From positions 35,300 through 99,299 of the forward strand of contig WJJS01000015.1 of NCBI GenBank assembly GCA_014729505.1: a DNA stretch of 64,000 bases, read 5' to 3'. Positions 3,370 to 64,000 of the stretch are shown piece by piece (within the stretch, counting starts at the first letter, position 1; every line of letters starts with the position of its first letter). A program made the translations under genes and the position numbers. The notes beneath the pieces are model-generated. The model was not told where the DNA came from and did no database searches. It saw nothing but the letters and a program-made list of their open reading frames with translations. This DNA is from Candidatus Woesearchaeota archaeon (GTDB lineage: Archaea > Nanobdellota > Nanobdellia > Woesearchaeales > ARS49).

Positions 3370-3641
3370 GCATACACCCACTCGTTTGGATACTCGTAGG
3401 AACACTCGTCACCGGCATCTCCTGGTTTGTTGGTGACTCGCTCATTATCTTCTTTTATGTTGGAGTCGCTTTTTTTGCATGGGGACTCTTTTGGATACTA
3501 ATACGACGAATAACAGCACCAGAAAAAGCTCCGCGAGAAGGAGTACAACGACGAGCAAAACGTTTTGTCTGCTATCGATGCAAACAAGAAGTAGGACCAG
3601 TCACCCAGTACTGCCCACATTGCGGCGTACGCATACGTTAG
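3366..3641 (+). CDS. small membrane protein with C-terminal zinc ribbon
   Basis: Two TM helices then CYRC...CPHC; ATGA overlap with the serS stop (translational coupling). Confidence 0.4.
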   Translation: MSIHPLVWILVGTLVTGISWFVGDSLIIFFYVGVAFFAWGLFWILIRRITAPEKAPREGVQRRAKRFVCYRCKQEVGPVTQYCPHCGVRIR

Positions 3642-4228
3642 TCGAGAATCTGTTCTAAACCATAGTCGAATTCACGAAGCAAAGACAATGTCGTAAATAC
3701 GGGCAGGCCCTGCACTGCATGATAATCGCCCTCTATTTTCTCAATAAAATGAGCACCCAGTCCCTGATACGCATATGCGCCTGCCTTACCCATCGGTTCT
3801 CCAGTGGCAATATAGCGAGACATGAGTCGCGGACCAATAGTTCTAAAAGTAATATTTGCAAGACTTACGCTGCTTTTTGTGGCGCACACCCCTGCCACAG
3901 AGCAGCACACGGCAACACCCGTGTAAATGGTATGTGTTCGACCTGACAACAATTGCAACATTGCTAAGGCATCAGCGTTATTCTTTGGTTTACCGAGAAT
4001 AATCATACGCTCACTTACCACCGTATCTGCGCCGATCACTAAGGAACCTTCGTTTGCGCGAGCAACCTTCTCCGCCTTAGCAATAGCGAGTTTTACAACA
4101 TAGTCTGAAGGATACGTCGCAGGATAGGATCGCTCATCAATGCCACTCTCAACACAGCGAAAAGGAATCCCGGTCGTTTCCAAAAGTTCACGTTTCGGTC
4201 TTGAACCGGTTGCAAGAATAACATCCAT
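3638..4228 (-). CDS. maf: Maf-like nucleoside triphosphate pyrophosphatase
   Basis: MDVILATGSRPKRELL... N-terminus and overall Maf/Ham1-fold similarity; start taken at the internal Met (4228) rather than 4261. Confidence 0.8.
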   Translation of the reverse strand: MDVILATGSRPKRELLETTGIPFRCVESGIDERSYPATYPSDYVVKLAIAKAEKVARANEGSLVIGADTVVSERMIILGKPKNNADALAMLQLLSGRTHTIYTGVAVCCSVAGVCATKSSVSLANITFRTIGPRLMSRYIATGEPMGKAGAYAYQGLGAHFIEKIEGDYHAVQGLPVFTTLSLLREFDYGLEQILD

Positions 4229-4323
4229 GATCAGTACCGTCCTACAACTGCATATAATCATTTCGGGATTGTACAGGTACTATCACAACAAATATTATAT
4301 AGAACAAGAATAGGTATCTCCTT

Positions 4324-40444: not shown

Positions 40445-40556
40445 CGCCCCCGGCAGGATTTGAACCTGCGACCTGACGGTCTCTTTCAAAGCTTGCTTAG
40501 AGCAACAAGCGAAGCAAGATAACAGCCGTCCGCTCTAACCACTGAGCCACAGGGGC
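40445..40556 (-). tRNA. tRNA-Asn (GUU) with a 39-nt intron at the 37/38 position
   Basis: Manual fold: acceptor GCCCCTG/CGGGGGC, D arm GCTCAGTGGTTAGAGC, anticodon stem GACGG/CCGTC, loop CTGTTA|intron|A, T arm GCAGG-TTCAAAT-CCTGC; intron lies at plus 40481-40519. Confidence 0.8.
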
Positions 40557-40768
40557 ATGATCGCTTGAGCAAGTCAGAGATTTATAAACGTTTCGCGACA
40601 AGTCAGGCGGTGACTGCGCTTTTTGTCAGCTCTTGTTACAGACATCGCTGCATTATGCGCGACGCGCACCTGTTAGCACTTATTGCTACCATGTGCACTG
40701 CCCTGAAATGCGCCAGCTCCTTTGGAGTTGCACAATCCTTAAATAACGCGCTTGTCTTTTTTTGCGTT

Positions 40769-41371
40769 ATGAAAGTGAAGCTAAAGCACCTCGTTGCGTT
40801 AGGGATTTTGATCATTGCCGCCTATCTTGCTTACTGGTATACGATTCCAAGCTATCCAGATATTATTACCCCAAAACCGGATTTTGGCAATCCTGACTCG
40901 CCCATAAAAATCATTGAGTTTTCAGATCTGCAATGTCCTGCATGCGCTCAAGCCCATCCTATTGCAATACAACTACTCGAAGAATACGGAGATGACATCA
41001 GCTTTCAATTCTACCATTTTCCGCTGCGCAGCATACACGCATACGCCCAAAAAGCTGCAGAAGGTGCAGAATGCGCCAATGATCAAGGCATGATGAAAGA
41101 ATATATCGACGCAGCATTCAAAAATAACAACCGATTATCGACAAGCGATCTTAAACTCTATGCGAGCGCACTAGGTATGGACGACACCTTCAATGATTGT
41201 CTTGACAGCGGGGCAAAAGCAGCGCTAGTTGAAAGTGATTACCGAGTCGGCATTTCAAAAGGAGTAAAAGCAACGCCAACATTTTTCATCAATGATGAGA
41301 AAGTTGAACAAGTCACACTGCAGTCTCTAAGAACAAGAATCGAAATGTTACTTGCAAGTGCTAACGCCTAG
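40769..41371 (+). CDS. DsbA-like thiol:disulfide oxidoreductase with N-terminal TM anchor
   Basis: CPAC active site in a thioredoxin fold preceded by one TM helix; start taken at MKVKLKH (40769), since the ORF-track extension to 40565 abuts the tRNA. Confidence 0.7.
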   Translation: MKVKLKHLVALGILIIAAYLAYWYTIPSYPDIITPKPDFGNPDSPIKIIEFSDLQCPACAQAHPIAIQLLEEYGDDISFQFYHFPLRSIHAYAQKAAEGAECANDQGMMKEYIDAAFKNNNRLSTSDLKLYASALGMDDTFNDCLDSGAKAALVESDYRVGISKGVKATPTFFINDEKVEQVTLQSLRTRIEMLLASANA

Positions 41372-41614: not shown

Positions 41615-42433
41615 TTACTCGTCATACACGGTCCTATCATTGTCGTCGAGCGCCACAGTTCTAGCAAGCTCTTTGTTAATACTAAACTCTTTTCCAAGAT
41701 CGGGTAACGAAAACGAAGAGAGACGGGCAACCACTCTTTCAATAACCTTTATTTTTGCTGCGCGGCGCACGGTACGCTTTGAATCATCACCAATATTTTC
41801 CAAGCGATTATCGCTGATAATCAGAACTGCACAAGCGCGCACACCAATATCCTCTGCGCGCGCATACAACGCTGCCACTTCCATCTCCAGACTATCAGGA
41901 TTAATTTTTTTATAGAACGGATTATTGTGAGGAAGCTGCAAGGTCACCGCAGGAACAGTAATATTAACGCCCTTATGCAGCGGGATGTGGTCCCGCAAAC
42001 AATCATACACCTTGTTCAGTAACTCCTTATCAGGCCGATCAACATGACGATCAGGAGTAATTGCATGATACAACCCGTGGAAATGAAACGCTTCAACAGG
42101 CAACACAACAGAACCGACAGGCACGTCATGAAAACCAAACGCGTACCCAATGAAAATAATGTTACGACAACCCCCATCATGCATCTCAGTCATCACATCA
42201 ACAACAGCAGGAGCGCCATACACGTTACTGACAAGCGGATAATACTTTCCATCCTTTTTGACCAAATGACCATGATACACTGCATCTTTTGAAGAAACAA
42301 CCTCATCAAAAAATCCAAGTACCTGTTGTTCAAACTCCGGCGAATTCGTCCCGGCAAGAATAATACCGACATCTTCAAAACTGTCCTTTCCAAATAATGA
42401 TTTTGCCCACGTTCCCATAACGAAAGCACTCAC
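41615..42433 (-). CDS. nucleoside phosphorylase family protein (PNP/UDP/MTAP-like)
   Basis: C-terminal EMEVAALYARAEDIGVRACAVLIISD matches the PNP_UDP_1 family pattern. Confidence 0.55.
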   Translation of the reverse strand: MSAFVMGTWAKSLFGKDSFEDVGIILAGTNSPEFEQQVLGFFDEVVSSKDAVYHGHLVKKDGKYYPLVSNVYGAPAVVDVMTEMHDGGCRNIIFIGYAFGFHDVPVGSVVLPVEAFHFHGLYHAITPDRHVDRPDKELLNKVYDCLRDHIPLHKGVNITVPAVTLQLPHNNPFYKKINPDSLEMEVAALYARAEDIGVRACAVLIISDNRLENIGDDSKRTVRRAAKIKVIERVVARLSSFSLPDLGKEFSINKELARTVALDDNDRTVYDE

Positions 42434-44766: not shown

Positions 44767-44858
44767 GCCCGAGTAGTATAGTCTGGATAGTACGCACGGT
44801 TGCGGAAGAATACTTTTGCAAAATCCGTGTAACCGGGGTTCGAATCCTCGCTCGGGCA
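44767..44858 (+). tRNA. tRNA-Arg (GCG) with an 18-nt intron at 37/38
   Basis: Acceptor GCCCGAG/CTCGGGC, anticodon stem CACGG/CCGTG, loop TTGCGG|intron 44806-44823|T, T arm CGGGG-TTCGAAT-CCTCG, discriminator A. Confidence 0.7.
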
Positions 44859-54739: not shown

Positions 54740-54812
54740 AGTCCCGTAGTGTAGTGGTCAATCATCTGGCACTTTGGATGCTAGGACGGCGGTTCGAATC
54801 CGCCCGGGACTA
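54740..54812 (+). tRNA. tRNA-Gln (UUG)
   Basis: Acceptor AGTCCCG/CGGGACT, anticodon stem TGGCA/TGCTA, loop CTTTGGA, T arm GGCGG-TTCGAAT-CCGCC, discriminator A. Confidence 0.75.
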
Positions 54813-54827
54813 TCTCGAGGTGACATC

Positions 54828-55535
54828 ATGACTGACATATATTCTCTAAAAGTTCAGGCACAACACTGCGACGCAACGATTCTACTCAACGGATTTCCAG
54901 TTGTTCGAGGAAACGTAGGTGCAGGAGGATACCCGATAAACCCTTATCTGGCCGGAGACAACACGCTAGAAGTCACACTACAAGCAAGAGGGCAAGGAGC
55001 ACATTTTTCTGGAGGAATCAACATCGCACAAAAAGGAGGTGTCGTGAGTACAGACCGTCAACAAAGCGATTTGATGAACTTTTCATTCTCCAAAGAACTT
55101 GAAAAGGGACCATTGACAAAGACGTTTACTTTCACTAGCACAGGAGCAAACTTTAGCAACCGACTCGTTAGCGCCCCGATACTTGAAGACAAGAACGCGT
55201 TACTTGATTATGCAATGAACGTCCAAAAAGCAATACTCGACAAAGACAAAGAAGCACTGCAAAGACACATGAAAACAAAAATGCTAGACTATGCAAAAGC
55301 GTTTGGAGTGCCTGACGAACACATGCTACAAGAACTCGACAACTTTATTCACATGATGTTTCAAGAAAAGCCAATCCTCTTTACAAGAGAACAAGTGAAG
55401 GCGACGCCGTGGTGTGACAAACGCATCTGGGAACTCAAAGTCACACCTGACAACGCACTTTTGCGCACAAAAGAAGGATGGACCATGCCTGTCTTTGTAG
55501 GTCTTGTTGACGGAAAGATTACCATCGTACGTTAG
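54828..55535 (+). CDS. hypothetical protein
   Basis: 235 aa from the MTDIYS start; the ORF-track start at 54774 would overlap the tRNA. Confidence 0.4.
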   Translation: MTDIYSLKVQAQHCDATILLNGFPVVRGNVGAGGYPINPYLAGDNTLEVTLQARGQGAHFSGGINIAQKGGVVSTDRQQSDLMNFSFSKELEKGPLTKTFTFTSTGANFSNRLVSAPILEDKNALLDYAMNVQKAILDKDKEALQRHMKTKMLDYAKAFGVPDEHMLQELDNFIHMMFQEKPILFTREQVKATPWCDKRIWELKVTPDNALLRTKEGWTMPVFVGLVDGKITIVR

Positions 55536-56450: not shown

Positions 56451-56990
56451 GTGACAATGGAATATGACGCGGTTGAAATGGAAAACATGATGAAAGAAGG
56501 AATGCGCGAAGTCTACGTGGGTCGCGACGGCACCATGAGCAAAATTGCAGATACTTCCTATACACCACTGAACCGATCCTACTGGGGTCCTCGAAGAGAT
56601 ACCACACTACTCTGTTCAGTAGCAAAAGATACTAATGAACACCACATCACGCTACGATTCTTTGGCGCAGGACGCAATCCTGACAGAACCAAGGAACTCA
56701 CACAACTTGTGCGAACAGAAATGGGAAGCATACTGCCATGCCGCTCGAGAGGATTAGTCACTGCGTATGACGATAACGGTGGTTATGTATGCAATGATGA
56801 AAGAGGAAGGCCCGATGCGGTACAAGTCCGTGCAATAGTACACAACAATAACTCAAACACGCTTGAACTCTCCGTTAAAGGAGTGTATGGAGCACAGGAA
56901 CTAGAAGGTCCAGTACGAAGAATCATGCAAGGCATGCTCGCCATGCGAGAAGGACCAGAAAAAGAACTACCCCGAGGAGGATACTTCTAA
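56451..56990 (+). CDS. hypothetical protein
   Basis: 179 aa; TAATG overlap with the next ORF. Confidence 0.35.
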   Translation: MTMEYDAVEMENMMKEGMREVYVGRDGTMSKIADTSYTPLNRSYWGPRRDTTLLCSVAKDTNEHHITLRFFGAGRNPDRTKELTQLVRTEMGSILPCRSRGLVTAYDDNGGYVCNDERGRPDAVQVRAIVHNNNSNTLELSVKGVYGAQELEGPVRRIMQGMLAMREGPEKELPRGGYF

Positions 56991-58084
56991 TGCACACAAC
57001 ACCACTATCTGTCAAATCAGAATACGGAAGTGCAGAATGGTTGCGAGAAGAGACAGAAAAAGTACGATCGCGACTGGGATTACCACCACAAGATACACAT
57101 GCACTGCTAGAAGACGAACAGCTCAAAGAAGTCCTGCTACGCCAGCACCAACATCGAAGTCGCGTAGAACAAGAAGAACGACAACTCATGCATTATCGTG
57201 CAGAAGATGTCAATCACTGCGCTCGACAAGTCTGGGGCCGACGAGAACTACAACGTCTGGGGGTAATTAACGGAGCAGCAGACAGACTCTTAGCCAACCA
57301 AGAACTCCTGCACGCACTCACGCATCAAGATGCACACAAGCGCTACGCACCAACAGCCAGAGAGCGAGGAGGATTTGTGTTTGGACTTGGATACGTCAGA
57401 CGATTCATCGATGACGAACTACGATCCTACAGAGCAGAACAACAAACGCCCCAAGTAGCAAACGGCATCTGTGACCTCGATCACCTGTTATGCGTGTCAG
57501 GAATGATGCTTGCAGGAATGAACCCTGATGCGGTCCTCGAAGGTCAACGCTGCGGTTCACCAGCAATGGACCGTCGGCGTTTTGGCCTTGAACGTTCAGC
57601 AGACGGTTATCATTTACAATCCACAGCAACAAAACGACAGTATCATCTACGACGAGAAAAAAAGAAAATGGTGTTTACCCATCAATCAGTGCATCCCGTC
57701 GTGTATGAAAAAACAGTCAGTGAATTTCGCGATGGTCCACGATTACGACCATTAACGCTCGTACCATCAGGAGCCAGTCAGCACCAAGTGGCAACATTCA
57801 TGCACAAAGCAGGACAGCATCTGACAAGAGAGCCGCGAGAATCAGTAGACAATGTGCGTGTCAACGGATCAACAATGGAATATGACCAGCATTTCTGGAT
57901 CGACAGAGATGAACTACACGATCTGGACTCCTCGGGCTGTGCAACACAAGCAGAAGTATTTGACGATCCGGAAAACAGATTCTACACGGCACACGTGACG
58001 CTGCGAGCAAAAGAATGCATGGAAAACCATACGCCAACACTGACATACCTGCTCACCGTGACCGTCGGAAAACGAACACTATAA
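56990..58084 (+). CDS. hypothetical protein (Arg/His/Gln-rich)
   Basis: 364 aa, no recognisable domain; composition atypical for the window. Confidence 0.4.
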   Translation: MHTTPLSVKSEYGSAEWLREETEKVRSRLGLPPQDTHALLEDEQLKEVLLRQHQHRSRVEQEERQLMHYRAEDVNHCARQVWGRRELQRLGVINGAADRLLANQELLHALTHQDAHKRYAPTARERGGFVFGLGYVRRFIDDELRSYRAEQQTPQVANGICDLDHLLCVSGMMLAGMNPDAVLEGQRCGSPAMDRRRFGLERSADGYHLQSTATKRQYHLRREKKKMVFTHQSVHPVVYEKTVSEFRDGPRLRPLTLVPSGASQHQVATFMHKAGQHLTREPRESVDNVRVNGSTMEYDQHFWIDRDELHDLDSSGCATQAEVFDDPENRFYTAHVTLRAKECMENHTPTLTYLLTVTVGKRTL

Positions 58085-58091
58085 ATTTTTT

Positions 58092-58898
58092 TTATTTCAA
58101 TTCACACACTTTACATTGTTCAGCAATCTTCTTTGCCTTTTGAAACGCGATACCCAGCAACGTTGCCAGTTGTTCGGGTGATTTTCCATGAATATCGCTA
58201 AGCAACAACACCTCTTTTTTTATACATCGTTCCAATAAATCAGGCGTTATACCGCGCAACATCGTAATAGGATACGCTTTATACTTCTCAATGTTTGACT
58301 GCAAACTATCATCCTTTGGATAACTCCAACCAAGCAAACGCAGACCAACACTCTTTGCATACCTTGTAGAATGGCCAGAGAATTTAGTGTTTGTTGCAAG
58401 CATAGGTTTGGTAAACTCCTTTTTTACATCAAGAAAACGAGCATACACATACAACGGAGTCTGAATATGAATAGTCAAATGCTCCTTACTCTTATGCTTA
58501 CACTCGACCATCAACACCTGAGAACCCTTCTTTGCCTTCACATCGATCTCATGGGTTACTGCCTTACCATGCGAAGTAACATTTCGACGACACTCAAAAC
58601 CCTGAAAGACTAAAATGCGCTCAATAAGAGCTTCAAAAGGAAAACCACTCCTGCCAAAACGATACAAGGCACCCTTCAAATCATACTTTGGAGCAACAAT
58701 GGGCTGCAATTTTCTAAACTCGCGAAACGCAAGACCAAAGAGTTCCTTTGTCGTCATACCATTATAGATCTTTTTGCGAACAAGAGCCTTAATCTGTTCA
58801 ATAGTATGCTTATCAGCACCTGCCCTCTTCAACGACTTCGCTAACTTTTTCTCGTCATATTTCTCCTTTGAACCATCGCCCTTAATGATGTATGTCAT
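58092..58898 (-). CDS. ATP-cone domain fused to an Mrr-like PD-(D/E)xK restriction-endonuclease domain
   Basis: N-terminal ATP-cone (MTYIIKGDGSKEKYDEKKLAKSL...); nuclease core HEIDVKAKKGSQVLMVECKHK (D...E-x-K). Confidence 0.65.
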   Translation of the reverse strand: MTYIIKGDGSKEKYDEKKLAKSLKRAGADKHTIEQIKALVRKKIYNGMTTKELFGLAFREFRKLQPIVAPKYDLKGALYRFGRSGFPFEALIERILVFQGFECRRNVTSHGKAVTHEIDVKAKKGSQVLMVECKHKSKEHLTIHIQTPLYVYARFLDVKKEFTKPMLATNTKFSGHSTRYAKSVGLRLLGWSYPKDDSLQSNIEKYKAYPITMLRGITPDLLERCIKKEVLLLSDIHGKSPEQLATLLGIAFQKAKKIAEQCKVCELK

Positions 58899-59803
58899 TG
58901 TTTGCCTCCGTAATAAAATTCAGACCAAATAAGATAATGATCGCTAACCTCGTCAGTAACAGAAGAATCCACGCCGCTACGAGCAAAACGCGGAACTGTT
59001 CGCTCACTAATGATCATCTGATCATAGGTACAGTCCGTTTTTGAGACGGTAGTATCAGCACGATCAGGAATCAACCAATACTGCGCACGCAACGCAGGGG
59101 CCTCATCCTCGTCAAGATACGAACAATCAGCATTGAGATCGCCAGCAATAATCACATGCTCATGAGTCTGCAATTCATTATTGAAAAAATACGCAAGACC
59201 GGCCAGTTCATTGACATTATCTGAAGGACTTGTATGAGCAGTCAACATGCGAAAAGTAAAATCCTCGACTTGAAACGTTGCAGCAAAAGGCTGGCGCTGC
59301 ATACGCCCAGTATCTTGAGGTGACGTATCACAAGTTTGTCCCAGCTCTTTATCATCATCAAGAAGTCCTGCAGAACCAACAAGAGATACCATGTCACGAT
59401 CATAGATGATCGCATAACGCTCATCCTTTACCTGAGGACTCATGAGAATAGAATAATTCCTGTTGCCAAGATGCGTTTGCAAGGCTTTTGTGACGAGTTC
59501 ACACTTAGGACCGGGACAGGCGTCCTGATTACGAGAGCACCCTTCATCAATCAATTCATCAACATTACTAATCTCTTGTAAAACGACAATGTCATACTGA
59601 CCGATACGCTTGGCAATATCGCTCATTACCATATCATTGCCTGCCTTTTTTTGCCCGAAATTCTCAATATTCCACGACGCGATAGAGATTGTAGGCCTCG
59701 AATCTTGCATACCGGTAACCCATCCAGTGATCTGCGGTTTAAAAGTTACAAAGGCAGTGCCAAGTACAAGCAACAATAATACAATACTACGAAGTTTCAC
59801 CAT
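58895..59803 (-). CDS. secreted endonuclease/exonuclease/phosphatase (EEP, DNase I-like) family nuclease
   Basis: Signal/anchor MVKLRSIVLLLLVLGTAFV; EEP motifs SWNIENFG, VVLQEI, GDLNAD, SDHYLIWSEF; ATGA overlap with the downstream ATP-cone/Mrr gene. Confidence 0.75.
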   Translation of the reverse strand: MVKLRSIVLLLLVLGTAFVTFKPQITGWVTGMQDSRPTISIASWNIENFGQKKAGNDMVMSDIAKRIGQYDIVVLQEISNVDELIDEGCSRNQDACPGPKCELVTKALQTHLGNRNYSILMSPQVKDERYAIIYDRDMVSLVGSAGLLDDDKELGQTCDTSPQDTGRMQRQPFAATFQVEDFTFRMLTAHTSPSDNVNELAGLAYFFNNELQTHEHVIIAGDLNADCSYLDEDEAPALRAQYWLIPDRADTTVSKTDCTYDQMIISERTVPRFARSGVDSSVTDEVSDHYLIWSEFYYGGKQ

Positions 59804-59865
59804 TTTTTACTGTCAAAAGCAAGAGTACCATCACATTTAAAAATATTGGTAACGCCAAAGACTAT

Positions 59866-60381
59866 ATGGCACACGTCATCCTCGATTTAGAATCACTTAA
59901 AGCACTAGCGACAAAAAGCCGCCTAGCTATACTCAAACAATTACAACAACGGCGACATACCGCTTCAGAACTCGCAAAAGAAATGGGACTGCGCGTACCC
60001 ACTGTTAGAGAACACCTTACAAGTCTGGCCCGAGCACAACTTATACAGCGACACGATGAAGGACATAAATGGAAATATTATTCGCTCACGACAAAAGGAC
60101 GAGCCATCGTAGAACCACAAGAACGACGATTCAGTATCGCGCTAGCAACATTTATCATCGGCGCACTGGGATTCGTGTTCTCCATTAGCGCAGCAATAAC
60201 AAACAGAATCGCAGAAGACGGCGTGCAAAGTCCGGAACTGATGGATGCAGGTGTACGCGCACTGCAAGCAACACCGGTGCTCAGTCACAACGCACCAAGC
60301 TATACCTTCATCTTACTTAGCGCGATACTCTTTTGTGGAGTAATCATTATATCACTTCTAGGACTACGCCGACGTTCATAA
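59866..60381 (+). CDS. ArsR-family HTH regulator with C-terminal TM segments
   Basis: Winged HTH (SRLAILKQLQQRRHTASELAKEMGLRVPTVREHLTSL) followed by two hydrophobic helices. Confidence 0.65.
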   Translation: MAHVILDLESLKALATKSRLAILKQLQQRRHTASELAKEMGLRVPTVREHLTSLARAQLIQRHDEGHKWKYYSLTTKGRAIVEPQERRFSIALATFIIGALGFVFSISAAITNRIAEDGVQSPELMDAGVRALQATPVLSHNAPSYTFILLSAILFCGVIIISLLGLRRRS

Positions 60382-60412: not shown

Positions 60413-61339
60413 ATGGCACGAACTGTTACCATTGTCATAAGCACGTCTTTACTCTTGCTTCTAGCAAGCCAGGTAACGCTCTTTTACCTGTTCTATGAAT
60501 TTGACAAGGACACTACTGCGAGATTTTCAACAATGCTTGCCAATGATCAACTCCTAGAACAAGGAATAGAAGATCTCAACACTCATATCGCAAGTACCAC
60601 ACAACAATTAGAAACAGCAATACTGAACACGCGCCAGGACCTCGGTGAGCAACTAATAAGCGTACAGCAAGAACTTGAAACAAGTACCGCCGCGTTTGCA
60701 CAAGATATTGCCGCTCTTGAACAAAGCCAGGCACAAACAAAAGCAAGCCTACAGGATTCAATACGAAACCTGCAATTGTCCAACCAGGATTTCAGCGGCA
60801 CCATACAAGACGTCCTGCCAAGCGTGGTCAGCGTGCTGACAGACGAAAGTCAGGGCAGCGGCGTTATTGTAGACAGAGAAGGACTAGTACTGACGAATTA
60901 TCATGTCATCGAAGACGCTACTATGATACGCGTGGTAACCGTTGAAGGGGATGTGTTAGGAGTAGACGTGCTAGGCTTTGCAGACAAACGAGATCTTGCA
61001 GTACTACACATACGAGGAGACCGAAGATGGGATGCACTCGATTTTGCAGACGACACGTTTGTAGGACAAAACGTTATTGCCATAGGCAATCCAGGAGGAC
61101 TGGGATTTAGCGTAACGGAAGGTATAATAAGCAGTACTAACAGAATCTTTGACGGATTGCACTTTGTGCAGATCTCAAATCCTATCAATCCGGGAAACAG
61201 CGGAGGACCACTCGTCAACATCGAAGGAGACATCGTAGGCATCAATACCCTCAAAATAGAAGGATTTGAAGGAGTTGGTTTTGCCATTCCAGCAACAGAT
61301 GCAGAAAATATCCTTGCACAAGCAAAAGAGTTGATATGA
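60413..61339 (+). CDS. membrane-anchored trypsin-like serine protease (HtrA/S1C-like, no PDZ)
   Basis: Catalytic triad contexts TNYHVI, DLAVLHI, GNSGGPL; N-terminal TM plus coiled coil. Confidence 0.75.
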   Translation: MARTVTIVISTSLLLLLASQVTLFYLFYEFDKDTTARFSTMLANDQLLEQGIEDLNTHIASTTQQLETAILNTRQDLGEQLISVQQELETSTAAFAQDIAALEQSQAQTKASLQDSIRNLQLSNQDFSGTIQDVLPSVVSVLTDESQGSGVIVDREGLVLTNYHVIEDATMIRVVTVEGDVLGVDVLGFADKRDLAVLHIRGDRRWDALDFADDTFVGQNVIAIGNPGGLGFSVTEGIISSTNRIFDGLHFVQISNPINPGNSGGPLVNIEGDIVGINTLKIEGFEGVGFAIPATDAENILAQAKELI

Positions 61340-61460: not shown

Positions 61461-61706
61461 ATGTTCAAAAGAGGGGATCCATCAACAGTCTTTCTCTTAC
61501 TCGCAGTAGGATTACTGCTTCTCGGCGGAGTATACTTATCAATTTTGTCAAGCAGTGGGAATGACATCACGGGAGCTGCAGGACAAACAACAGAAAGCTG
61601 TTCCACGTGCATGGTATGCACAGCACAACCAGGAATCTGCATTTCATTATTCGTACTCGTAACCTGCATTGCAGGCATAGTCGTAATAGAATTTACACGA
61701 TCATAG
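61461..61706 (+). CDS. small membrane protein
   Basis: 81 aa, 2 TM helices. Confidence 0.3.
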   Translation: MFKRGDPSTVFLLLAVGLLLLGGVYLSILSSSGNDITGAAGQTTESCSTCMVCTAQPGICISLFVLVTCIAGIVVIEFTRS

Positions 61707-61747
61707 GACGCAAGCTATATATACTACTCTCTCTTTATCGTAGCGAT

Positions 61748-64000
61748 ATGGTGATAAAAAAAGGGGCGACTATAGTTCTCTTCCTTTTATTTTGTAGTCT
61801 GGCAATGACTGCAGGCGCAATAGAAGTTGCCGATGAAGCGGCATGCGCAGGCACACCAGACCCCTCACAATATACGTATCCAGACAATTCAGGAGCGTGT
61901 TACCAAGCAGTACTTGCAAAAGCAAGCGATGCAGTCAAATGCTATTGCGCTGCAACAGGAAAATGCAGCGTGCCACGCTGTTCTTGTGCAACAAAACGAT
62001 CAACAGACGGGCATTTAAACATTGAATATGCCGAAAGTGATTTAGACGTTATAAAAGAATGCACTGGCAACCCTGCAGCAACAGGACTGTCAAGCCTCTT
62101 TGGAGCAGGCGACACGTTTATCGCTGATGACAGCACTGCAGGAGTACTCATCACTGATCCAGCACTCTGCGGCAACGGTGTCATAGATCCAGGAGAATCA
62201 TGCGATCCTAACAAAGCACCAACAGGATGCAGTGAACTACGCATCTGTGGCACACCAGCAGACCCGCGACCATGCAGGTGCACCTGTGATTATGAACGCA
62301 ACGCTGCAGGACAAGTCGTCAAAAAAAGCACAGGCGCCATAGGGGATCCCTGCAAAGGACGAGCAGCAGCAAACAAAGAATGGACATTCGACGAAGCATC
62401 ATGCACGTGCAAAGAAGTCTGTCAGGATAATCCACCAGTATCATTTACTCAAGCCAGTTGTCGCGCACAACATACGAGCAAAACAAAATGGAACGAAGAT
62501 ACCTGTGCATGCCTCTTCTGCGGCGACGGCACATACACTACAGATCCAGACGTGAGCTGTGACACCGTAGCAGGCACGGACCCGGTTGGCGCATTTGCCT
62601 GTTCGTACAAAGAAGAATGTAACGCACTGACATGCGGATGCGATTTCTGCACTGACGGCGTCAAAGCCTCATTACTCGCCGATTGTCAAATAGAAGCCTT
62701 CATTGAAGATATAGATCTCATGATGGATCCAGGAAACTGGCTATATGATTACCGCATACCAGGAAGAAATCCTGCACTACATCATAAACGAGTCAATTTC
62801 GCATCCTTGAAGATTGCAAATGATTGTAGCAAATGCACCTGGTCATACATCATCACCAATCCACCGCGCCCACCACCAGGATGGATGCCGCCAGGAGGAT
62901 GGCCCATTCCTTTACCACCACCATGGCTTGGACCCGCACCACTCAATATTACATCAACAAACGTGACCCCTGTCAATGCAACACCGCCCAACATGACAGG
63001 AAATATCAGACCAGTAAACGTGACACCACCAAACGGTACAGGGGGAGTCATCTTTACTGACACGGACGGCGATACCATTTACGATTTTGCAGACAATTGC
63101 GTTCTCATACCAAACGCGCAACAAGAAGACTGGGATCTCGACGGTATTGGAGATGTGTGCGACAATTGTATATATTTTTTGAACCCAACACAAGCAGATA
63201 CAGACACTGATACGTACGGCGATGCATGCGACCTCTGCCCGACAGAAGATGATCGCATCGATACAAACGGCAATGGTGTTCCAGACTGTCTAGAAGGGCC
63301 ATCACCGCCGCCAACACCATGGTGTACTGACGCAGACAATGACGGACTCTACGTCTATACCGCAACAGGCAACGCGACTATGCCGCCAGGAGCAAGCTTC
63401 AGTTGCGCAGTACAAGGACATTACGACTGTGATGATACAGACCCATTACAAACAAGCGAGTTTTTACCAGAAGCATGCGACGGTTACGACAATAATTGCA
63501 ACGGACTCGTCGATGACGGACTAGGCAATCTCACGTGCGGACAAGGCATTTTTGAAAACACCGTACCGGCATGCGTGAATGGACAAGCACAACTCTGCAC
63601 ACCAAAAGATGCATGCCCCAATGACCCGCAACGCGATGCAGATCAAGACGGCATCTGTGGCGACGTCGATAATTGCCCGCTCATAGGAAATCCCAGTCAA
63701 GCAGATGACGATAATGACGGCATAGGAAATGCATGCGATAACAATACCATCGTCAATACACCTACCTGCGGCAGTGTCACCGTTACCAGTCCATCAGGAT
63801 CCATAGGAATCAATTGTCCAACAGGATCTGGAGGGTCCCGACGGGGAGGATCAGTAACAGTAAGCAATATCACTGTTGGTTATCCAGAACTTAGCGTCGA
63901 GATCAGCTGTTTAAAAACGATCATCAGCACACCATATATCTGTGTTGAAGAAGGACTGAACAGTATCACATATACGCAAATCCTGCCAGGAGACGAAGAG
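61748..64000 (+). CDS. large secreted cysteine-rich surface protein with myxococcal-type Cys-rich repeats and thrombospondin type-3-like Ca-binding repeats; 3' end outside window (not in ORF track)
   Basis: Manually translated frame 2 is open from the ATG at 61748 to the window end (>750 codons): signal peptide MVIKKGATIVLFLLFCSLAMTAGA; CGNGVIDPGESCDPN repeat; TSP3-like DTDGDTIYDFADNC..DLDGIGDVCDNC, DTDTDTYGDACDLC, DADQDGICGDVDNCP, DDDNDGIGNACDN; the minus-strand ORFs listed inside it are antisense artefacts. Confidence 0.7.
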   Translation, partial: MVIKKGATIVLFLLFCSLAMTAGAIEVADEAACAGTPDPSQYTYPDNSGACYQAVLAKASDAVKCYCAATGKCSVPRCSCATKRSTDGHLNIEYAESDLDVIKECTGNPAATGLSSLFGAGDTFIADDSTAGVLITDPALCGNGVIDPGESCDPNKAPTGCSELRICGTPADPRPCRCTCDYERNAAGQVVKKSTGAIGDPCKGRAAANKEWTFDEASCTCKEVCQDNPPVSFTQASCRAQHTSKTKWNEDTCACLFCGDGTYTTDPDVSCDTVAGTDPVGAFACSYKEECNALTCGCDFCTDGVKASLLADCQIEAFIEDIDLMMDPGNWLYDYRIPGRNPALHHKRVNFASLKIANDCSKCTWSYIITNPPRPPPGWMPPGGWPIPLPPPWLGPAPLNITSTNVTPVNATPPNMTGNIRPVNVTPPNGTGGVIFTDTDGDTIYDFADNCVLIPNAQQEDWDLDGIGDVCDNCIYFLNPTQADTDTDTYGDACDLCPTEDDRIDTNGNGVPDCLEGPSPPPTPWCTDADNDGLYVYTATGNATMPPGASFSCAVQGHYDCDDTDPLQTSEFLPEACDGYDNNCNGLVDDGLGNLTCGQGIFENTVPACVNGQAQLCTPKDACPNDPQRDADQDGICGDVDNCPLIGNPSQADDDNDGIGNACDNNTIVNTPTCGSVTVTSPSGSIGINCPTGSGGSRRGGSVTVSNITVGYPELSVEISCLKTIISTPYICVEEGLNSITYTQILPGDEE

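Follow-up and report, generated by a model that had tools for sequence, protein, structure and literature searches.

The window analysed here, a 64-kb stretch of DNA from a Woesearchaeota archaeon, carries on its minus strand two adjacent nuclease genes: an open reading frame (ORF) of 302 amino acids at 58895..59803, which encodes a homologue of DNase I, is followed by one of 268 amino acids at 58092..58898, which encodes an ATP-cone domain joined to a nuclease of the PD-(D/E)xK fold. The products are 100% identical to the NCBI proteins GF342_04000 and GF342_04005, and a chance origin is excluded for both ORFs by their length and highly significant homology. The two genes overlap in the tetranucleotide ATGA (58895..58898, minus strand), in which the DNase gene stops and the ATP-cone gene starts; this arrangement had been described in a first-pass annotation of the DNA, and both coordinates and overlap were verified in the sequence. 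A Shine-Dalgarno-like GGAGG lies 6 nucleotides (nt) 5′ of the second start, within the 3′ end of the DNase gene (58905..58909, minus strand). Because of the overlap and this internal GGAGG, the genes are very likely co-transcribed, as the annotation had proposed, and translationally coupled. A TATA-like box, TTTTTAAAT (59835..59843, minus strand), about 36 nt 5′ of the start of the DNase gene, is a putative archaeal promoter for both genes; it lies in the 62-bp spacer that separates this gene from a divergent ArsR-like gene. A sigma-70 promoter scan of the locus was disregarded as not applicable to archaea.

The first gene encodes a true homologue of DNase I, of the EEP superfamily, by both fold and residues. 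The protein matches the Pfam family Exo_endo_phos (PF03372; E 1.6e-12), and phmmer matched it to human DNase I (E 1.4e-19), bovine DNase I (4.5e-19) and DNase1L3 (5.6e-15). When its AlphaFold2 (AF2) model (pLDDT 89.5) was compared with the PDB by Foldseek, DNase I and DNase1L3 structures made up the ten best matches, with TMt 0.73-0.80 and E values as low as 5e-20; the model thus has the four-layer alpha/beta EEP fold, in agreement with the fold first assigned to it. We aligned 15 homologues with bovine DNase I (the phmmer match confirms this reference sequence for all but its last 42 residues). Bovine E39, E78, H134, D168, N170, D212, D251 and H252 correspond to E77, E128, H190, D222, N224, D261, D288 and H289 of the window protein, all of which are invariant, and the equivalent of bovine N7, N45, is at least 90% conserved. 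The essential bovine disulfide C173-C209 aligns to C227 and C258, both invariant among the 15 homologues; in a larger alignment C258 is invariant and C227 at least 90% conserved. The window protein thus shares with mammalian DNase I and DNase1L3 the fold, the catalytic and metal residues, the C173-C209 pair and an N-terminal export signal. It differs from mammalian DNase I in being archaeal, in an additional Cys-rich insertion (C89, C96 and C101, with C158; consensus C..RN...CPG...C) and in an anchor-like N-terminal segment, and identity in structure-based alignments is 23-25%.

This N-terminal segment, a hydrophobic signal peptide or signal anchor, spans codons 4-22 (59738..59794, minus strand), with a hydropathy maximum of 2.2 over 17 residues, and appears in the AF2 model as a low-confidence helix. 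The homologues have an equivalent segment, several of them with a lipobox-like G-C-T instead. Judged by its sequence, the DNase is predicted to be exported or anchored, and hence extracytoplasmic; the segment looks like an uncleaved anchor. The earlier description of an exported product with a signal anchor and a full EEP catalytic set is borne out by the hydrophobic residues 4-22 and the conserved catalytic residues. A DsbA-like exported oxidoreductase is also encoded in the window (40565-41371).

The second gene (minus strand) encodes an ATP-cone domain (residues 1-80; 58659..58898), a PD-(D/E)xK core of the AF1548 type (residues 81-195; 58314..58658) with the motifs E89, H116-E117-x-D119 and E132-x-K134, and a C-terminal helical domain (residues 196-268, which with the stop codon occupy 58092..58313). 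Pfam recognizes ATP-cone (PF03477) at residues 3-53 (31.5 bits against a cut-off of 25.8), Mrr_cat (PF04471) at residues 85-188 (31.2 bits against 21, E 2.5e-7), AF1548-like_C (PF22357) at residues 209-262 (25.3 bits against 23.9) and Hjc (23.8 bits against 21.1, over only profile positions 6-57 of 93). In the AF2 model (pLDDT 96, pTM 0.91), Foldseek matched the C-terminal two thirds of the protein to PDB entry 1Y88 (TMt 0.85) and residues 1-80 to the cones of NrdR and ribonucleotide reductase (RNR) (7agj, 6aui, 9gex; rmsd 2.5-2.8 Å over 81-91 columns). A profile of the first 82 residues also matched residues 6-78, the cone, of E. coli RNR R1 (E 2.8e-4), as well as NrdR cones; the RNR and NrdR rows alone were used from this PDB search, the top rows being spurious designed helical-repeat proteins. 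The fusion of an ATP-cone to a PD-(D/E)xK nuclease, which had been read from the sequence, is confirmed by Pfam, AF2 and Foldseek. The label ‘Mrr-type’ given to it is imprecise, because the match to AF1548 is far stronger, there is no Mrr_N domain and no methyltransferase partner.

AF1548 of Archaeoglobus fulgidus (1Y88), the closest solved relative (E 2.7e-31 over residues 81-263), is a structural-genomics protein predicted to be restriction-endonuclease-like (PMC1821046). It has the same core, C-terminal helical domain and predicted catalytic D...ExK as the window protein, whose D119, E132 and K134 correspond to AF1548 D38/E51/K53, the catalytic residues predicted by Yooseph et al. (PMC1821046). 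The crystallised AF1548 chain, however, has no ATP-cone and aligns only from query residue 81, whereas the cone is present in the window protein and in nearly all listed relatives, at lengths of about 260-290 amino acids. The C-terminal domain contains two helix-hairpin-helix (HhH)-like G-I motifs and is presumed to be a nucleic-acid-binding module. Because a hydropathy scan revealed no hydrophobic segment in the ATP-cone nuclease, its sequence predicts a cytoplasmic protein, as had been thought.

Across 29 family members, E89, H116, E117, D119, E132 and K134 are invariant, as are K6 and G9 of the cone, and conservation of K18 and T50 reaches at least 90%; bacterial members show the same pattern. 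K6, K18 and T50 are probably the equivalents of E. coli NrdA K9, K21 and T55, a mapping based in part on the profile match. The first Lys of RNR is followed by an Arg (R10) that the family has not conserved. RNR large subunits and NrdR have the same N-terminal cone of four helices and a beta-hairpin, and by analogy their likely logic, adenine-nucleotide-dependent switching of oligomers, would be expected of the window protein, although its output domain is a nuclease and not a reductase or a zinc-ribbon DNA binder. A cone attached to a DNA-binding module is the design of NrdR, and the protein might accordingly be imagined as a nucleotide-sensing DNA-binding regulator of neighbouring nucleotide-metabolism genes, whose nuclease fold only binds DNA. 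In other proteins the PD-(D/E)xK fold has come to serve for DNA binding without catalysis, and NrdR and RNR are neighbours of the ATP-cone nuclease in five loci. We nevertheless consider this very improbable, since invariance of E89, D119, E132 and K134 in archaeal and bacterial members is unexpected for a non-catalytic binder, and several of the loci already hold a separate NrdR.

The Mrr_cat match could also point to a defence or restriction module, the alternative offered by the first-pass annotation. In such a module the ATP-cone protein would act either as a type IV (Mrr-like) enzyme or as an abortive-infection nuclease that senses nucleotides, while incoming foreign DNA would be destroyed at the cell surface by the DNase. 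Foldseek finds the core to be similar to MspJI, AspBHI and Can2, and ‘restriction endonuclease’ is among the database names of the family. The design, a small-molecule sensor on a PD-(D/E)xK nuclease, is that of Can2/Card1 (CARF) and Cap4 (SAVED), and the Can2 core is structurally similar. PADLOC gave weak matches to the nuclease domains of ZorD (E 5e-6) and CARF-PD-(D/E)xK effectors (CARF_PDDEXK, 1e-3 or weaker), and no match for the DNase. In addition, three other DNase homologues, archaeal or bacterial (P0125, P0130 and P0135, in the related loci numbered L093, L095 and L097), adjoin tyrosine integrases; next to that of L093 lie a CBASS-like SMODS cyclase gene and an E2 gene, and next to that of L095 an N6/N4 DNA methyltransferase gene. 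Surroundings of this kind resemble mobile or defence islands and differ from those of the window locus.

Against defence, however, stands first the N-terminus, which is an ATP-cone at residues 1-80, with no Pfam match to Mrr_N and no other modification reader. The window protein has the Mrr_cat match in common with Mrr and type IV enzymes, but AF1548 is a far nearer relative of it than Mrr is, and it shows neither the winged-helix Mrr_N nor evidence of a defence context. Unlike Can2/Card1 and Cap4, the window protein has a cone as its sensor, no CRISPR or CBASS link of its gene, and a metabolic context. The PADLOC matches cover only the shared nuclease fold, at E 5e-6 or weaker. No methyltransferase gene adjoins the ATP-cone gene in the window, and none was found among the 25 most frequent families when Pfam was run on 141 immediate neighbours in 75 loci, so that the protein does not cluster with restriction-modification methyltransferases. 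No phage-encoded homologues were found, family members are uniformly about 270 amino acids long and lie in chromosomal housekeeping or metabolic contexts, and an exported DNase cannot reach DNA injected into the cytoplasm. We reject a restriction-modification system because neither a methyltransferase partner nor Mrr_N was found, and a defence island at the window locus because housekeeping genes (DNA ligase, FtsZ, tRNA synthetases, GINS and Orc1/Cdc6) occupy the 45-54 kb region around it as well as the remainder of the window. Defence in the broader sense is improbable, and the suggestion of it is left essentially unsupported.

The order DNase, then ATP-cone nuclease, is kept in five other lineages (L081, L082, L087, L088-90 and L099), whose ATP-cone proteins are 48-56% identical to that of the window and whose DNases are 45-55% identical. 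The genes are directly adjacent in L087 (53% identity for the ATP-cone protein), with a TAATG overlap, and in L099 (50%), with a 15-nt spacer that contains the Shine-Dalgarno sequence AAGAGG. In L081 (56%) and in L082 and L088-90 (54%), a CxxC thioredoxin-fold gene of 94-99 amino acids is inserted between them. This thioredoxin (Trx)-like gene (L081:6834-7118, L082:1359-1652, L088:824-1123) has no counterpart in the window; it is joined to the ATP-cone gene by a stop/start overlap in L081 and L088-90, and in L082 by an overlap of the two ORFs. The protein has the CxxC and a GVPF cis-Pro-like motif, no signal peptide, and only sub-threshold matches (Thioredoxin_2, DsbA, TrbB, YruB glutaredoxin-like). 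As a speculation, it may keep the six-Cys DNase reduced before export or serve as an NrdH-like redoxin.

Wider order is also partly kept. The divergent ArsR-family helix-turn-helix gene (59866..60381, plus strand, identified by Pfam) remains beside the DNase gene in L081, L082 and L087. Its ArsR/SmtB-type product has two C-terminal hydrophobic segments (residues ~88-113 and ~143-170 by hydropathy), is possibly membrane-anchored, and may regulate the nuclease operon or the common intergenic region. Next to it, a gene for an HtrA-like serine protease of the trypsin fold, which has a hydrophobic segment at its N-terminus (60413..61339, plus strand), is syntenic in L081, so the window and L081 are alike in the order HtrA, ArsR, DNase, ATP-cone gene. 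In neighbour-joining trees without bootstrap, the paired DNases form one clade, and so do the paired ATP-cone genes, with the unpaired gene of L086 nested inside.

In other lineages the neighbours of the ATP-cone nuclease vary: the census of 141 neighbours revealed no dominant partner (HGSNAT acyltransferase 12, Cdc6 5, HhH-GPD 4, NrdR 3), and each lineage has its own synteny. Several of these contexts nevertheless bring together nucleases and nucleotide-consuming enzymes. On a plasmid of Pontibacter actiniarum (L101, NZ_CP021236) and one of Criblamydia sequanensis (L102, NZ_LK031773), the ATP-cone gene heads an identical run on one strand, with gaps of at most 11 nt or overlaps: ATP-cone protein, metallo-beta-lactamase (MBL)-fold hydrolase, thymidine-phosphorylase-family protein and ribose-phosphate pyrophosphokinase, each pair of proteins being 49-60% identical between the two plasmids. 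The MBL partner is by its domains a Beta-Casp plus RMMBL nuclease, and the thymidine-phosphorylase-family protein, of about 500 amino acids, is AMP-phosphorylase-like. A beta-CASP MBL gene also adjoins the ATP-cone nuclease in Rhabdochlamydiaceae (L077) and in metagenomic loci L084/L085. As an independent test we used the chromosome of Psychroserpens ponticola (L103, CP116221), where the beta-CASP partner lies directly downstream of the ATP-cone nuclease; the full-length gene (L103:8158-9522) is missing from the called-gene table and was found by tblastn. Loci L037 and L041 also have a beta-CASP gene, at a distance of 5 kb, but its product is the housekeeping termination factor FttA and it was left out of the count.

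In Altiarchaeota (L052) a tRNase-Z-like MBL gene comes first, then the gene for an AMP-phosphorylase-like protein and, after a 6-nt gap, that for the ATP-cone nuclease. Form III RuBisCO lies 1-4 genes downstream in six Nanoarchaeota loci, directly adjacent in L017 and L034, and NrdR followed by RNR lies directly downstream in five loci (L031, L040, L048, L063 and L080). The RNRs of these five Pacearchaeota and Woesearchaeota loci are 27-72% identical to one another, and two ATP-cone proteins there flank one another. The bacterial loci L101, L102 and L103 have the ATP-cone nuclease and beta-CASP genes within gene runs of a fermentative or stress type (glycogen phosphorylase, phosphoketolase, acetate kinase, PFK, Usp, MgtC, P-type ATPase), including a 2-hydroxyacid dehydrogenase that is 64% identical between Pontibacter and Psychroserpens. 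These runs hint at an energy-starvation programme.

We tentatively favour an interpretation in which the two genes form an operon that serves nucleic-acid scavenging and is specific to one lineage, a clade of Woesearchaeota. Outside the cell, extracellular or host DNA would be cut by the exported and presumably disulfide-stabilised DNase I; in the cytoplasm, nucleic acid would be cleaved by the ATP-cone nuclease, whose translation is very likely coupled to that of the DNase. By analogy with RNR and NrdR, the cone would bind ATP or dATP and switch the nuclease between active and inactive oligomers, so that intracellular cleavage of nucleic acid would track the adenine-nucleotide pool. Across phyla, the ATP-cone nuclease may carry out the first step of nucleic-acid catabolism or salvage, a gated endonucleolytic cut, a role suggested by the second nuclease and the nucleotide-consuming enzymes that adjoin it; in this clade the exported DNase I would replace the second nuclease (beta-CASP/RMMBL or tRNase-Z-like MBL). 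A bolder generalization is conceivable but doubtful: AF1548-type ATP-cone nucleases might form a class of endonucleases, so far unrecognised, that are under allosteric gating and initiate the catabolism and salvage of nucleic acids. The cone would place DNA or RNA breakdown under RNR-like feedback by ATP/dATP or energy charge, and the partner nuclease would finish the breakdown, feeding the NMP-phosphorylase/pentose-bisphosphate pathway.

That pathway offers the closest metabolic setting. The ATP-cone nuclease adjoins a gene of the AMP-phosphorylase family in L052 and on the two bacterial plasmids, and RuBisCO III in six loci. No nuclease is recognised as a member of the AMP-phosphorylase/RuBisCO pathway, and the ATP-cone nuclease is linked to it by gene neighbourhoods alone; none of its genes was found in the 64-kb window. 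The DNA-scavenging module proposed in the first-pass annotation is therefore upheld in part: the beta-CASP, AMP-phosphorylase-like, PRPP-synthetase-like, RuBisCO III and NrdR/RNR neighbours elsewhere favour it, whereas the pairing with the DNase belongs to a narrow clade and is not general.

A number of observations weigh against the scavenging operon, beginning with the extent of the pairing. A scan of GTDB returned 356 species genomes with a relative of the ATP-cone nuclease, a scan biased by its reliance on a single peptide pattern. In its best 80 loci (34-53% identity, mostly DPANN and a few Patescibacteria; about 70 have at least 1 kb of upstream sequence), tblastn over up to 10 kb found a DNase homologue near the ATP-cone nuclease in none. 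From the side of the DNase, none of the three other homologues (L093, L095 and L097; 46-52% identity) adjoins an ATP-cone nuclease. Even among close relatives the pairing is missing from L086 (51%) and L091 (49%), and it is not seen in L100 (48%), which has only about 0.8 kb of upstream sequence. The order of genes common to the window and L081 means that adjacency may reflect common descent and not selection. Neighbours are uninformative for most family members, the commonest being the HGSNAT-type membrane acyltransferase, and no informative ones were seen in the Patescibacteria loci L059, L069 and L072 or in Phaeodactylibacter (L064). In Psychroserpens no AMP-phosphorylase or PRPP-synthetase gene lies within 7 kb, and the RuBisCO and Cdc6 links each come from one lineage with kept synteny, and so represent few independent events. 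There is no transporter or DNA-uptake gene in the operon. Finally, NMP phosphorylase acts on ribonucleotides, which fits RNA and not DNA as the substrate.

Taken with the trees and the paired relatives, the absence of the pair from all 80 distant loci and from the three other DNase loci indicates that the pairing arose once and was kept over about 50% protein divergence in one clade; it is therefore not a general module. The idea that the two genes are conserved neighbours accordingly holds for five lineages of one narrow clade and fails beyond it. Nor does wider synteny extend to the 80 GTDB loci, since tblastn with the window DNase, the Trx-like gene and three flanking ORFs (orf364, orf179 and orf219) gave no match there, and the ArsR gene gave one weak match. 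A scan of metagenomic contigs with a single protein returned three distant loci and no close relatives.

This narrow distribution also counts in favour of the main rival explanation, in which the genes are neighbours by descent with unrelated jobs. The DNase would degrade environmental or biofilm DNA or attack a host, and the ATP-cone protein would be an Hjc-like, structure-specific nuclease of repair, recombination or replication that is tied to the supply of dNTPs. We regard this as plausible, though on the whole rather unlikely. Pfam recognizes Hjc in part of the core, narrowly above threshold, the names given by JGI include ‘Holliday junction resolvase’, and the C-terminal domain is HhH-like. 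Orc1/Cdc6 is a neighbour in eight Micrarchaeota loci, an HhH-GPD glycosylase in about five loci and NrdR/RNR in five, and the pairing itself is confined to one clade with wider common synteny. In three of the paired lineages, moreover, the inserted Trx-like gene makes the tighter unit one of Trx-like protein and ATP-cone nuclease. On the other hand, where the Trx-like gene is missing, the DNase is directly coupled in at least three lineages (by ATGA, by TAATG, or across the 15-nt spacer with its Shine-Dalgarno sequence). This direct coupling after loss or absence of the Trx-like gene suggests that co-expression is tolerated and possibly selected. The bacterial and Altiarchaeota contexts suggest catabolism rather than repair, and the Cdc6 and glycosylase contexts are each lineage-specific.

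The ATP-cone nuclease family occurs in DPANN, Patescibacteria, Bacteroidota and Chlamydiia. Searches returned 267 clusters at 50% identity with E ≤1e-30, almost all of 260-290 amino acids, and a bacterial query returned at least 6,551 clusters at 90% identity, free-living Bacteroidota included. The matches of the GTDB scan, almost all from DPANN and Patescibacteria, had given the impression of a family limited to nucleotide-auxotrophic symbionts; this was ruled out by the Criblamydia-seeded search, with its thousands of Bacteroidota members. The link to such symbionts drawn in the first-pass annotation consequently does not hold as a trait of the family, which has many members in free-living Bacteroidota. 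Public databases already contain annotations for both domain families and for the ATP-cone/nuclease architecture, under names such as ‘ATP cone domain-containing protein’, ‘restriction endonuclease’ and ‘AF1548-like’. In the literature searched we found no functional study of AF1548, of an ATP-cone nuclease or restriction endonuclease, or of an ATP cone with AMP phosphorylase, and no report of the cross-phylum link to a beta-CASP nuclease and nucleotide-catabolic enzymes.

Elsewhere in the window, genes of nucleotide or nucleic-acid turnover encode a TatD-family DNase (940-1689), a Maf-like nucleotide pyrophosphatase (3638-4261) and a PNP_UDP_1 phosphorylase-family protein (41615-42433). No de novo nucleotide-synthesis genes were seen among the approximately 50 window ORFs scanned, which is uninformative at the 64-kb scale. 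Converging on the ATP-cone gene from the plus strand, with 7 bp between stops, are two ORFs of 179 and 364 amino acids (56451-58084) that overlap by one base at 56990; Pfam, NCBIfam and PADLOC gave no match for them, none of the related loci contains a homologue, and their G+C content is 0.469 against 0.422 nearby. On the far side of the HtrA-like gene, an ORF of at least 812 codons (~61565-64000, plus strand) continues past the window end. In L081 the gene beyond HtrA encodes a protein of 1008 amino acids with TSP_3 and MopE-like copper-binding repeats, and by this position the window ORF may encode a large surface protein. Two tRNA genes, of 112 nt (40445-40556, minus strand) and 92 nt (44767-44858, plus strand), were found by Rfam and not by ARAGORN, and presumably contain introns, which fits an archaeon. 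An ORF of 253 amino acids (54774-55535, TTG start as called) has no family match and overlaps tRNA-Gln (54740-54812); its true start is probably further downstream than 54774.

DPANN and other microbes with reduced genomes are thought to live partly on foreign nucleic acids. DPANN have been proposed to degrade imported DNA with unnamed nucleases that feed the AMP-phosphorylase/RuBisCO pathway (PMC7414124, PMC9563170), and secreted nucleases of Patescibacteria have been proposed as tools of salvage (PMC11495043). The locus described here is a concrete candidate for the unnamed nucleases upstream of that pathway in the DPANN models. If the bolder generalization is true, it would name the missing nucleases for DPANN, some Chlamydiia and some Bacteroidota that live on nucleic acids, and the presence of the family in cultivable Bacteroidota opens it to experiment. 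Should the gating prove real, allosteric control by ATP-cones would reach beyond the synthesis of nucleotides to the degradation of nucleic acids.

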